Origin: Curvularia clavata
Lineage: Eukaryota
Assembly (NCBI GenBank): GCA_023920165.1
Contig: CP089276.1
Span: 1,922,001 to 1,986,000 of the forward strand
Direction of reading: 5' to 3'
Length of the DNA stretch: 64,000 nt
Positions 15,316 through 64,000 of this stretch are shown here, in pieces. A model generated the notes under the pieces. That model saw only the letters and a list, made by a program, of their open reading frames with translations. It was not told the origin of the DNA and ran no database searches. Positions within the stretch are counted from its first letter, which is position 1. Each line of letters starts with the position of its first letter. Both the position numbers and the translations under genes were made by a program.

Positions 15316-17006
15316 TTAAGAGGAAAGAGCATCAACGCAGCCAAAGTGCTGCTCAACACCGTACGCGCCAGCAGCCTTCCAGGTGTCGTCCTGGAAAGAG
15401 AAGACACAGGCGTGAGAGCCAACCTTCTCCTGGATGCTCTTCATGGCGATCTTCTGGTCCTCCACGCTAGCGATGGCCTTGCCGTTGGCCTGGCCAGAAG
15501 AAGGCCAGCCAATCTCGCCAATGTACTTGCCCTTGCCAGCGGCGCCAGGGCACACCTTGGCGGCTTGGTCGAGTTGCTGGGCAGCAAAGTCACCAGCCAT
15601 ATCGGCGCTGATGGACTGGGTGAAGTAGGGCTGGACCTGGCAGACAAAGACGTCAATGTGGTCGCAGAGGGCAGCACCCATCTCCTCCCAGATGTTGACA
15701 GGCTCAGTGGTGGTGACGGCAACAGACGAGGGGAAACCAGCGCCCTGGAGCTCCTGGCGAACGTGGTCAATGTAGGAAGCGAGCTCCTCGGGCTTGCAGT
15801 TGCCGTTGAACATGCACTCGTTACCGACGATGACCATGGCGACAGAGTCCTTGGGGGCCTTGTTCTTAATGTCCTGGAGCTGCTCGTCGGCGTACTGGGA
15901 GAAGCAGCCCTTGCCGTCCTTGCCACCAGCCTCGAGGAAGATACCGTAGATGATCTTGAGTCCATGCTTCTGGCACTCGGGAACGACGTGCTCGAAGACA
16001 CCGCAGTCAGTGCTGTAGGAGCGGATGGTGGTGAAGCCAAGATCAGAGATCTTCTTGATATCGGAGGCAATCTCCTCAGCAGTCTTGCACTGACCAGACT
16101 GGGCGTAAGGAGTGTAGGTGATGGCCCACTTGTCGCCGTTGGTTACAATGTGGCCATTGCCACCAGCGGGGGCAGAGGGCTTGGGCTTGTCACTTCCTTG
16201 GGAGGGAGTGGGCTTTTCTCCAGAGGGGTAGGTAGCGGGCTTGCTCTGCTCAGGAACAGCAGGGTAGGAAGGCTGGTTGGGCTTAGGGGTCTCAGGCTGG
16301 CTGGGCTTGGACTCCTTGGGAGGCTGAGGAACAGCCGGGTAAGCAGGCTGGCTTGGCTGGGGAACAGCCGGGTAGGCTGGCTGGCTCTGCTGAGGAACTG
16401 GGGCAGGTCCAGTGGGCTTGGGGGTCTCCTCAGTGCAAGAGGTAGACTCAGGGACAGCAGGCTTGCTTTCCTGGGGAACGGCCGGCTTGCTTGGCTGGGG
16501 GACCGAAGGGTAACCGGGCTGGCTCTGCTGAGGAACAGCGGGCTGGCTCTGAGGGGGAACGGCAGGGTAGCCAGGCTGGCTCTGCTGGGGAACGGGGGCA
16601 GGTCCAGTGGGCTTGGGGGTCTCCTCAGTGCAGGAGGTGGACTCCGGGACAGCAGGCTGGCTCTGCTGAGGGACAACAGGGTAGCCAGGCTGGCTTTGCT
16701 GGGGAACAGCTGGGTAGGCAGGCTTCGAGACCTCTGGGACAGAGGGCTTGGGGGTCTCAGGGGTGGCAGTGGGGTAGTGAGGAGCTGGGTGCTCTGGAGG
16801 AAGTTAGGATACTACTTCATCTTTTCAGCAATTGCTCCGTGGAAGAACTAACCTGGGGTCACGTAGACGGTGGTGTAGACCGTGCAAACATCAGCCTGAG
16901 GAGCCACTGGGTACTCGTGGCGGCGCTGGTGGAAACCAGCATGGGCCTTGTGCTGAGAGGCGAAGACTGACCCAACGAGGGCAGCGGTAACAAAGGCGTA
17001 CTTCAT
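15316..17006 (-). CDS. Secreted GH17 cell-wall beta-glucanase/glucanosyltransferase (BtgE/Scw11-like) with Pro/Gln-rich repeat linker; 2 exons (17006-16853, 16793-15316)
   Basis: Signal peptide MKYAFVTAALVGSVFA; catalytic domain WAITYTPY..GQCKT..IRSYSTDC, VIVGNE, YIGEIGWPS and FSFQDDTWK..GAYGVEQHFG. Confidence 0.85.
16230..16760 (-). repeat. Intragenic imperfect tandem repeats encoding (A/G)YPAVPQQSQP units and two copies of PAVPESTSCTEETPKPTGPAPVPQQSQP
   Basis: Near-identical ~60-bp blocks start at about 16402 and 16597, interspersed with repeated ggctggctctgctg.ggaac motifs. Confidence 0.85.
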
Positions 17007-60953: not shown

Positions 60954-61880
60954 GTTGGTGATGCTTGACAGCAGGTTGCTGGTGGACAAATGCGGTTAAA
61001 GTACTCGCAACCAACGGAGATCTGGTTCCAGTGGTCACGAGGGGTTGGCGAGAGAAGATGGAGAAGAAGAAGAGAATTCCGGCCTACGAGAGGTAGGTGA
61101 TTGCCTAGACGTTAAACCCGTCCCGGGTTTAAGGTCAGTCGTGATTGGGCTTTGTGACTCACCATGGCGTGCATGGGAAGCTCCATCCAACAGCTTCTAG
61201 ATCTCGGTCACAGAAATAGGCACCGGCAACCTTGCCGATGTTCGCTGCTGTTATGTTGCTGCGCGGCCGAGACACCGAATGTACAATCTAAACGAGAATG
61301 TGGGGGTGGGGTACGTCATAGTCGACATCTTCGCTCCCGTGCATATCTTGACCACTCTCTCTCCATCCTCAAAACCACTTTAGTATTCACATATTTTGTA
61401 CACAAGAGGACACTGAGGTGTCCGCTATACTTCAAATGTTTCTCCTATGTGACTAACACCGATCTATTCTGCTTGGCGATCACATGTAACCAACTTTTTT
61501 GCCATGCCAGGCAACACCACCAGATTCTGGAACTGCGTGCATTCACCTCGAACAACGCATGAATAAAGCGGATATTGTTACAGTACCGTTCAAAACTGCC
61601 CTCACCCTTTGCGCAAGCGACAATATTGTTGGGTCCCTGTTAGTCTAGGAAATCCTTGCTAATTCCAACTAATCGCGGAGTACTGGGACCTACTAGCTCT
61701 AAATAAGCTAGCTTGCAATCAGGAGGCACTCTTATATGTAGAATAGGTGCAATGCAGTGCTGTACGCATCGTAGTCGATATAAAGTTACACCATATTCAT
61801 TGATGTTTGCTGACCTGTTTATGCTTTCTATAGTTCCTCCCGTATGTGTCCTCAAGCGTACACTTTAGATCTAGGTCTCC

Positions 61881-62256
61881 TCACTCCGCTTCCCACCATT
61901 CTAGGATTGCCAAAGAAGACTTAAGATTAAAATGACCAGCTTTTAGCACTCGCTGACACGGCTGTACACATTTTCGTACTAAGACTATAGCCTCTACATT
62001 CCGGCTTTATATTTTCTACACAAAGGCTAGGTTAGCAATATTAGTTGGCGTGGCAGGATAGTCTGCTCTGAGCTTTGTATTAAAAACCACTACTATTTGC
62101 GCGGATAGGTCGTTAGCATTGTTGTATCGCCAATAGTGCCTATGTATCAATACTAGATTAAGCATGTTTGTCATTGGGATAATCGGCTCTAAGCTTCGTC
62201 TTACTTGTCTCTATTATCTACACAAATAGCTTCTTAGCGTTGTTCCACCGCCCTTG
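61881..62256 (-). pseudogene. Degenerate C-terminal TPR-repeat remnant of an NLR (NB-ARC/NACHT-TPR type)
   Basis: Manual translation: QGRWNNAKKLFV*IIETSKTKLRADYP / frameshift / MTNMLNL..RYNNANDLSAQIVVVFNTKLRADYPATPTNIANLAFV*KI*SRNVEAIVLVRKCVQPCQRVLKAGHFNLKSSLAILEWWEAE*. This matches the fungal NLR TPR consensus QGRW.EAE.L.VQVMET.K.KLGADHP.TL.SMANLA. Confidence 0.85.
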
Positions 62257-62326
62257 GCCCAAAGACTACATCGAGCAGCCGCTCCAGTACTGTGGCACGT
62301 GGCCTCTACTATAGCTCTATACGTAC

Positions 62327-63433
62327 TTATCTCCTCCCGAACACAGCCCCGTGAACTCCACCGTTGATGACTCCAGCTTGTTGGCCCGAGTTCTGACTAC
62401 CAAATGTAACGTTCATTGCATGCGTTGCAGGTTGATGCGAAGACACATTCGCACTTTTCTCCCGGTCTTCCACTTGTACAGCAGGAATTGTTGACAACAG
62501 CCCCTTCGCATACGCAGCGGCAGTTGCCGCCGCATAGTTCTGCCAACCCTTGTTCTTGTGAGAGTCTGCATAGTCACAGATGCCTCGGATGACCACACAC
62601 GGGTGTTCTTCCATAACACCGGCAGCTTCCATCTCAAAGCAGATTGCTTCATGCTCGAGATGGACCCTGTTGCGTTCCACGGCAGATATCTGTAGCTGAT
62701 TGCTCGAGGCGATATTGCCAAAATGGACAGACGGCTCATCAGTCGGTCGTGTGGCAGACTCCCCGCGTTCAAAACGCGAAATAGTGTAGTCTGCGTCGCA
62801 GCAATCTTTGCAATCGTCAAGCTCAGTGCCTTGGTGCTGGTAGCCGTCCTCGAAGAGCCTGTCGCGAATGGGGCCTGGGTCATCGTACTGGCCTTGTCGC
62901 TTCTCGTCGAGCTTAAGACGCATCTGCTTCAACGTATCGCAGATATTAATCTTAGACCACCCTTCCGATCGAAAATTGTTAACAGCGACCAGAAGATCAC
63001 CAGGAACGCCGTTAGTGTGTCCACGAAACTTGAGGCATCCTTGACCCTGCCAAGCGCCCTTGTCGTATTGCAACACCCCACCGTGGTTACCCCGCGGATA
63101 ACTGACGACTACGTCTCCTAGCACAATCTCCGAGGCAGCCCCAGCTGGTCCATAGCGAGGCACGCCGCCAGCGATACCGACGAGGAAGAAGTACTTAATA
63201 TTTGGAAATCCATCGCGCATTTTCTCAGCAAGAATTGCGGCTTGGCTGAGCCCGATTCGCCGCTGCACCCCCATGACGACCTTGTGCACTCCGATTCGGC
63301 CGCCTAAATAGAAAACGCCCTTGTGTTGGACCTCGTCCTGGGGATACTCCTCATCAAACACAAGTCGTGCAGCTTCCTTTTCTAAAGGCAAGGGGGAGAT
63401 CCACCCGATGGTGAAGTGATGATTCGAGGCCAT
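62327..63433 (-). CDS. PNP_UDP_1 (purine/uridine phosphorylase, Pfs-like) domain protein with C-terminal putative amyloid signalling motif
   Basis: FTIGWISPLPLE, LVGIAGGVP, IVLGDVVVS, VHFGNIAS.N, CFEMEAAG and IRGICDYADSHKNKGWQNYAAATAAAYAK; tail NVTFGSQNSGQQAGVINGGVHGAVFGRR*. Confidence 0.92.
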   Translation of the reverse strand: MASNHHFTIGWISPLPLEKEAARLVFDEEYPQDEVQHKGVFYLGGRIGVHKVVMGVQRRIGLSQAAILAEKMRDGFPNIKYFFLVGIAGGVPRYGPAGAASEIVLGDVVVSYPRGNHGGVLQYDKGAWQGQGCLKFRGHTNGVPGDLLVAVNNFRSEGWSKINICDTLKQMRLKLDEKRQGQYDDPGPIRDRLFEDGYQHQGTELDDCKDCCDADYTISRFERGESATRPTDEPSVHFGNIASSNQLQISAVERNRVHLEHEAICFEMEAAGVMEEHPCVVIRGICDYADSHKNKGWQNYAAATAAAYAKGLLSTIPAVQVEDREKSANVSSHQPATHAMNVTFGSQNSGQQAGVINGGVHGAVFGRR

Positions 63434-63753
63434 GCTGCAAAAAGAAAAATCTCAATGATGGCTCCAAAGACGGTTGCAAAACTTGGGTGTTTGTGGTAGG
63501 TAGGAGATGTAAGAAAGTTATAGGCAGCAGTGCAGATAAAGAGCAGCGCTCAGCCTTGTCACTCAGCCTCGTCGCAGCCATCAATCAGGTTTTTCGTGAC
63601 AAGCTTGGCCTTTGATCATGATCAACGATTTGTGGAAATAACGGCATATGCTCATAAACAGCGTTAGGATTAGTGAATCGAGCAAGCTAGATAGCACTGT
63701 ATCTACATTTTCCGCCCACTAATTTACTACTAGACGATATCACGCTTGTTGCA

Positions 63754-63963
63754 CTATCGCACACTAGAGAATACACCAGTTTTCAACTTCGAGAGAGTTA
63801 TACGCCTAGCCCAACGATTCTTCCACAGCCACATAACAACCATCACAACGGCCATAGGGGCTGTGAAGGCCCAGTAAACCCAGAAATGGTGTGACACAGT
63901 AAACGACGAACTTCCTATGTCTCCACTGGGCTCAAAAGAAAAGAAGCTCATCCCAAAAACCGT
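63754..63963 (-). CDS. Last exon of a CorA-like transmembrane-domain protein (gene extends beyond the window)
   Basis: TVFGMSFF..FTVSHHFWVYWAFTAPMAVVMVVMW resembles the GM(N/S)-loop plus final TM helix of fungal CorA-like domains; preceded by a GCTAAT branch site and AAG acceptor. Confidence 0.7.
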   Translation of the reverse strand, partial: TVFGMSFFSFEPSGDIGSSSFTVSHHFWVYWAFTAPMAVVMVVMWLWKNRWARRITLSKLKTGVFSSVR

Positions 63964-64000
63964 CTTCAATCCAGCCATTAGCCAGGTATTGTATCAAATT

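Follow-up and report, generated by a model that had tools for sequence, protein, structure and literature searches.

A decayed 3' end of an NB-ARC-TPR NLR gene in Curvularia clavata probably belongs to the left arm of an old Tc1/mariner-derived element with cargo genes; the element runs from position 61579 of the window to C3:1990406. The window is the whole stretch of 64,000 nucleotides analysed here (G000:C3:1922001-1986000); it comes from a fungal genome of 32.4 Mb, and the named relatives of its proteins are mainly from Pleosporales. Taken alone, the relic is ordinary. The cargo of the element would be a two-component cell-death cassette, consisting of a PP-like NB-ARC-TPR receptor and a divergent PNP_UDP effector with a matching motif, together with a broken CorA-like gene. 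Many NLR genes of the same genome lie between similar ends, which suggests a way for NLR genes to move. A wider reading, for and against which the balance is about even, is that small Tc1/mariner-type transposons are a major vehicle for the birth and movement of fungal NLRs. On this reading, each of several end families would transport entire NLRs or NLR-effector cassettes, with 23 units counted and roughly a quarter of sampled NLR/PNP loci involved. The elements would also shuffle effectors and receptors via a shared amyloid motif, and could rebuild lost ends by copying the NLR arm, leaving relics behind.

Layout of the unit

The unit is 6,828 bp long and lies in an MFS transporter locus, with its left end at window position 61579 (C3:1983579) and its right end at C3:1990406; the portion at 61579..64000 is inside the window and the rest runs past it. 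The left terminus (61579..61640, plus strand) begins with TA and then CAGT, and mirrors the right end as an imperfect inverted repeat. It is followed, still within the left arm, by a copy of an NLR 3' flank (61641..61880, minus strand) and by the relic itself (61881..62257, minus strand). Beyond the relic lies a remnant of a Tc1 DD34E transposase core (62258..62305, plus strand), and then a stand-alone PNP_UDP effector gene of 368 aa (62327..63433, minus strand), whose open frame contains PF01048 above the cut-off and ends in a PP-like amyloid signalling motif (aa 341-368; 62330..62413, minus strand). The 3' part of a CorA-like membrane-protein pseudogene, recognised by tblastn to the copy at the metagenome locus L073, occupies 63754..64000 (minus strand) and continues past the window to about C3:1986700. 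Outside the window, an intact PP-like/NB-ARC/TPR NLR gene with two introns (C3:1987252-1990119, plus strand) is divergent from PNP; its 3' flank leads to the right terminus, ACTG followed by TA, at C3:1990406.

The decayed NLR end

The relic was originally picked out from the letters of the sequence, as about three TPR-type repeats interrupted by three internal stops and one frameshift. Six-frame translation confirmed the broken NLR fragment: the TPR-type repeats lie on the minus strand and end in the terminal helix ..SSLAILEWWEAE*, with the stop at 61883-61881. The estimate of the repeats was a fair one, as there are two clear repeat cores and a capping repeat before the helix, and the lesions were borne out by comparison with intact paralogs. 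The stops correspond to CAG>TAG at 62220, TGG>TAG at 62018 and CAA/CAG>TAA at 62009, and the frameshift is a 5-bp deletion near 62176. Read through, the relic has no direct Pfam match at E<=1, but the expected similarity to NLR and TPR proteins was found against intact NLR ends of its own genome (E 3.6e-19 and 4.7e-17 in a genome search). The relic also matches the neighbouring NLR, in which Pfam recognises NB-ARC together with TPR_10/TPR_12, at 42% over 97 aa. The relic has no NTPase domain, its homology beginning at 62257, and it is a fragment whose frame is not open. At the other side, homology extends beyond the feature as first noted, through the NLR 3' flank, to 61579; over 61579-61880 the identity to the corresponding flanks of three intact NLRs and another relic, on C4, is 55-59%. 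More TPR-end relics with stops occur at C1:5112276 and C4:2321578, where no inverted arms were seen within the fetched 10-kb stretches.

The attribution of these changes to RIP holds in part. The polarity of mutation was scored at sites where three intact paralogs agree. In the relic, C>T and G>A changes affect 47 of 146 G/C sites, against T>C and A>G changes at 16 of 125 A/T sites (OR 3.2, p 1.6e-4), and 16 of 30 CpA/TpG sites have changed versus 20 of 83 in other contexts (p 0.006); the polarised changes also include 20 transversions. The intact arms yield OR values of 0.65-2.5, which are not significant, and the C4 relic is likewise without significant bias in the same region. Transition bias and CpA preference are both present in the relic, but its own 3' flank copy has no C>T bias (OR 0.89). 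Moreover, the CorA-like pseudogene, a control that is single copy in the genome and lies in the same 6.8-kb unit, has OR values of 1.2-1.9 and a CpA skew that is not significant, and the excess of the relic over this control is significant neither for the bias (p 0.18) nor for CpA (p 0.07). The GC content (0.42) and substrate index (1.05) of the relic compare with 0.27-0.29 and 0.68-0.79 in six Tc1 copies of the genome, which are far more degraded. The TpA/ApT index, which had been proposed as a check, reaches 1.34 in the relic, a value attained by 4 of 170 windows of equal size; however, the index alone is not diagnostic because one intact NLR end scores 1.69. Together, these patterns support RIP mildly, and the relic is best described as a product of old neutral decay on which a mild RIP-like signal is superimposed. 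Separately, AT-rich Tc1-like elements of ~2.1 kb with inverted repeats of ~330-370 bp (L057, L064, L066, L067, L069 and L070) provide evidence of RIP in the lineage.

Termini and inverted arms

Homology between units halts at 61579, where TA is followed by CAGT, and at the right terminus, with none in the 300 bp of flank. The terminal inverted repeats at C3 are imperfect, having 5 mismatches in the 20 nt following the hexamer; their outer limits are sharp. Ordinary Tc1 elements of the genome likewise end in TA followed by CAGT. DD34E transposases carry out TA-targeted cut-and-paste, and TA at both ends represents the target duplication in Tc1/mariner elements. In the present data all 14 tabulated pairs have TA at either end, a count that is partly circular, as TA was built into the search patterns of three end families.

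A 28-nt pattern of the end found here (A-type) matches at 6 places in the genome and nowhere in the control, and the matches form 3 inward-facing pairs, each enclosing a PP-like NB-ARC-TPR NLR. In the unit at C3:1983579-1990406 the NLR is accompanied by the divergent PNP, at C4:4367051-4372578 by a HeLo-like stub fused to another TPR relic, and at C1:482604-486753 by a divergent HeLo-like gene. There are no young identical copies among them, because A-type units are mutually only 60-75% identical. In metagenomes the exact A-end pattern has 0 matches. All 58 metagenome PNP loci were scanned for the A end (26 of the 58 were gene-mapped), and it was present in two only, L073 and L074, which are near-identical to each other; the far end of this L073/L074 element was not found. 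Among the first 15 of 80 DDE_3 loci, the A-type end was absent at <=5 mismatches per 20, with one 6-mismatch match. In addition, C4:4367051-4379627 holds the A-type unit and a C-type unit (HET-NACHT-WD40) ~640 bp apart, with a HET-NB-ARC-TPR gene just to the left, and is an NLR cluster built from adjacent elements.

Other arms of this kind are more numerous. A second (B-type) end motif forms 6 pairs of 3.8-18 kb, all six enclosing a NACHT gene and two of them also PNP; its search gave 14 matches, of which C2:2652056 and C2:4857561 were left out of examination. A third (C-type) end motif, TA followed by ACGTCCGTCCCT, has 33 matches and 0 in the control. All 7 of its inward pairs enclose an NLR mark, and an NLR lies on the inner side at 9 of the 22 ends outside the pattern-building set, where the null gives a mean of 0.53 and a maximum of 5 in 20,000. 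In an NLR-first test, inverted repeats were detected at E<=0.01 in 13 of 44 NLR/PNP-centred 10-kb stretches. Two of these positives were dropped, C7:1052701 being a separate small TE and C1:575601 a coding ankyrin-to-ankyrin match. Non-coding inverted arms bracket the gene in 11 of the 44 stretches versus 0 of 16 in the small control set (p 0.027), and the remaining 33 are without bracketing arms. This wider inverted-repeat test was used because a stricter TA-CA pair test found 3 of 46 stretches (0 of 13 controls). The total comes to 23 units (3 + 6 + 11 + 3, the last three paired from coordinates only): A-type ends occur in 3, namely the window's unit and two more, and the other 20 NLR units have other TA-bounded or inverted arms.

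An account that dispenses with transposition is unlikely. It would make the arms local inverted duplications of an NLR with its 3' flank, the termini conserved 3' elements of NLRs, and the transposase a chance neighbour. It gains from two metagenome loci, L076 and L078, which have NLR copies on either side of PNP and no A-type end, from the inverted NLR pieces present in one arm at C4 and C7 too, and from the lack of an empty site. However, the end at C1 comes after a HeLo-like effector and not after an NLR, arms of the B-type and C-type lack coding sequence both 5' and 3' of the gene, and homology stops at TA. Local duplication also sits poorly with the transposase pieces found at the same junction in three loci (see below), and with a C-type arm on C2 that lies upstream of a decayed Tc1 transposase and a HET-domain gene. 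There, the arm, the decayed transposase and an open HET-domain/ankyrin-like gene stand in a row (C2:5422151-5426330; L058, L213), and a second arm was not found in 10 kb.

Movement of the units we infer rather than observe, because no empty site was seen: none was found in four sequencing runs, and among the joints listed none crosses the unit. A comparison of isolates had been suggested as a way to find an intact NLR at the locus. Isolate X3 has the whole unit, colinear and with only two listed differences in the relic. The other runs are patchy, and the relic is uncovered in X18, X19 and X13, which is not evidence of absence.

The proposed cargo

The PNP gene is complete and has relatives of up to 92% identity across the full length; like its close relatives, it ends in the PP-like motif and a stop. 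This tail is common to PNP relatives and HeLo-like proteins, and shares about 75% DNA identity with the tail of the HeLo-like effector at C1. The motif also matches the N-terminus of the intact divergent NLR, which lies 1.8 kb away, upstream of PNP. The NLR motifs reach E 0.041 and 0.27, below the cut-off, with Pfam Ses_B, which we take to be the Pfam model of PP, and the PNP motif has no Pfam match. Because of this low score, and because the motif here (NxGxQxGxxN) is one residue longer than the published core (NxGxQxGxN), the pair is termed PP-like and its amyloid behaviour is predicted. If the pair signals as its motifs imply, ligand binding at the TPRs would cause the NLR to oligomerise, and the NLR motif would template the amyloid fold onto the PNP tail. 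The clustered PNP would then destroy nucleotides, probably ATP, and cell death would follow. Run X18 has contigs from which both predicted introns of the NLR are missing, with the joints at GT..AG, and one that spans PNP to window position 62194. These contigs point to expression of PNP and of the NLR, the run, from a single study, being probably RNA although not on record as such.

Between PNP and the NLR, the CorA-like gene (Atlas, CorA-like 0.96; PF01544 on 4 of 17 relatives) is broken by deletions of about 240 and 141 bp relative to L073. Of the 17 proteins that match one CorA-like exon, nine have a gene model that also includes a PNP domain. In the metagenomes, CorA-like precedes PNP in 7 of the 15 closest loci (in one only partly), and the linkage of the two is thus widespread. 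CorA-like is a possible third, pore-forming component of the pathway. A CorA-like gene lies between NLR and PNP in several fungi (L073, L075, L076, L078 and L084), and public gene models often fuse it with PNP. A PNP paralog (73% aa) at C2:677081-680208 (L030, L044-L045) has a different tail and is followed by a tandem NACHT NLR with an N-terminus that resembles this tail; no inverted arms were found at this PNP-NACHT locus. Relatives of this PNP clade have several interchangeable tail types.

The transposase remnant and related cassettes

The spacer of ~45 bp between PNP and the relic matches the transposase of L073 and L074 at 81% over 43 nt (E 6e-5 to 6e-6 in 744 kb) and a transposase on C7 at 78% over 41 nt (E 0.01), corresponding to codons ~211-225 of the C7 protein. 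The remnant has the same place and orientation as in L073, and its last bases overlap the homology to the PNP 3' flank, which ends at 62303. L073 and L074 contain the same cassette, with a PNP of 91% aa identity and a right end common to the base, and match neither flank of the window locus, i.e. the cassette lies at another locus. This occurrence in another fungus would support movement indirectly. Directly after PNP and tail-to-tail with it, L073 and L074 have a decayed Tc1 transposase, most of which is kept, while the NLR is upstream of PNP. At the same place, L075 keeps ~80 bp of the transposase 3' end, a piece below tblastn detection; pieces of transposase thus mark the same junction in three loci (window, L073/L074 and L075).

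The sequence-only reading envisaged no mobile element. A deletion would have removed the middle part of a single PNP-NB-ARC-TPR gene, or of an NLR in tandem downstream of PNP, and RIP would have mutated the TPRs left behind. Part of this stands, since the NLR N-terminus and NTPase are indeed absent beside PNP, tandem NLRs follow directly downstream of the same PNP type in L076, L077, L078, L079 and C2, and the relic has the RIP-like bias described above. Nevertheless, such a deletion is improbable. The PNP frame is intact as a stand-alone gene, the spacer is made up of PNP 3' flank and a transposase fragment, and it is this transposase remnant that weakens the proposal. Further, the relic carries the NLR flank up to a terminus that is paired 6.8 kb away, and the closest cassette, L073, has its NLR upstream and its transposase downstream. 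A collapsed PNP-NLR fusion was also rejected, given that PNP stands alone, ends in its motif and a stop, and has an intact divergent NLR 1.8 kb upstream.

The transposase on C7 is a member of this family in G000 with an intact ORF (325 aa; DDE_3, DD34E, D149/D233/E268), and it adjoins a degenerate NACHT gene. About 100 bp past this ORF is a 13-mer identical to the first 13 nt of the window left end; 2 of the 4 genomic matches of the 13-mer are chance matches inside genes. No second matching end for this transposase was found within 40 kb, and the ends near it were rejected as its own termini, as they belong to an enclosing 18-kb B-type unit. That unit (C7:2821249-2839331; L138, L131, L132) contains the degenerate NACHT gene, which has a very long repeat array, the intact-ORF Tc1 transposase, and a nested second transposase with 52-bp inverted ends. 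Its right arm contains inverted NLR-piece copies of 89-92% identity, and the unit may be a younger example of relic formation.

Origin of the relic

Among the sequences compared, the closest relative of the relic is the NLR of L073. The relic is 64% identical to the L073 NLR end versus 60% to its own neighbour NLR, a six-arm tree joins relic and L073 at 100/100, and 14 transversions and 7 non-RIP transitions are common to these two alone. A recent copy of the neighbouring NLR was considered as the source and rejected on the placement in the six-arm tree (a five-arm tree is unresolved). The unit matches L073 at 79-94% identity as far as about C3:1986900, and at 57-72% over the NLR. These comparisons suggest that the relic is the end of PNP's earlier partner NLR, moved or copied to the left arm, and that the present NLR is a replacement.

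The ancestor would have resembled L073, with the transposase facing PNP, the CorA-like gene in the orientation of PNP, and then the divergent NLR running towards the end of the element. A rearrangement may have carried the NLR 3' end, along with the adjoining flank and terminus, into the central part of the transposase, so that both ends of the element would have become NLR-type. Mild RIP would have accompanied the later decay of this orphaned NLR end, and the NLR now present in the right arm would be a different PP-NLR. The relic could have arisen by an inversion, by an inverted duplication, or by deletion after a second copy was made, and the data do not distinguish among these routes. At C4, C7, L076 and L078, too, NLR pieces flank the cargo on either side; in L076 and L078 inverted NLR copies flank CorA-like and PNP, and the NACHT copies of L078 are 81-91% identical. 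Very improbable is a maintained spare sensor end, whereby inversion between the TPRs of the arms would swap the receptor C-terminus in a shufflon-like manner: inverted TPR copies do face an intact NLR at C3 and C4, but the relic has stops and a frameshift, is only 60-66% identical to the cis NLR and does not group with it, and isolate X3 is colinear.

Relation to known systems

Two-component amyloid signalling by fungal NLRs involves an effector with a C-terminal motif and an adjacent NLR with an N-terminal one, the NLR templating the amyloid fold onto the effector, and PP is paired with both enzymatic and pore-forming effectors (PMC9815663). The pair described here has the same layout, with a motif that differs from the published core by the additional residue and is not PUASM (FxGxGxQxxGxGxF). 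In the available part of that paper, transposition is mentioned as a possible reason for clustering, and Starships are the only example cited (PMC9815663). Cap17-like PNP ATP nucleosidases are immune effectors, and PNP as an NLR-linked effector has been proposed for fungal NLRs, according to the portion of the preprint consulted (bioRxiv 10.1101/2023.01.24.525353). The PNP domain is NLR-linked here too, in a putative member of this clade with a predicted ATP activity.

Transduplication by Tc1/mariner and hAT elements is documented in Pyrenophora tritici-repentis, where either a histone H3-like gene or a coiled-coil ORF serves as cargo and is present in tens of copies that are nearly identical (PMC3538342). 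The cargo here, by contrast, consists of full NLRs or NLR-effector pairs in single diverged copies, and several end families are involved. Starships carry NLRs as cargo, but the examples given in the accessible text measure about 77-195 kb and have a tyrosine recombinase (bioRxiv 10.1101/2021.12.13.472469), whereas the present units span 3.5-18 kb and have TA ends and remnants of DDE transposases. Identity with a Starship was rejected for the 6.8-kb unit, in which the genes identified are PNP, CorA-like and NLR only, with no captain and no giant size. In Podospora, NLR remains with a C>T excess have been described, and NLRs are TE-associated and sometimes translocated (PMC13449251, PMC4986451). 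Those studies do not settle on a mechanism (ectopic recombination or 'direct mobilization'), and the text examined describes no TIR-bounded NLR units.

In the literature covered, with subscription journals mostly outside its scope and supplements not included, we came across no description of small TA/TIR-bounded elements with NLRs or amyloid NLR-effector pairs as cargo; TE annotations in supplements may bear on this. RIP-hit NLR remains, TE-associated NLRs, Tc1/mariner transduplication and NLR cargo of Starships are all known. The passages available pose as an open question by what means fungi that have RIP continue to acquire, move and recombine NLRs (PMC13449251, PMC12258605), the vehicle named in the former being the giant Starship. 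If the present reading is true, short TA-bounded elements with a receptor and an effector would offer a concrete and testable route for NLR gain and movement. Such elements would keep a cell-death pathway linked, insert between housekeeping genes, and permit effector swaps, as with PNP and HeLo-like proteins, which have a tail in common. Searches of other genomes can start from the end motifs straight away.

Elsewhere in the window, positions 16001-17000 have a GC content of 0.61-0.62 and a high TpA/ApT (2.8 at 16501-17000), and are probably a repetitive coding region.
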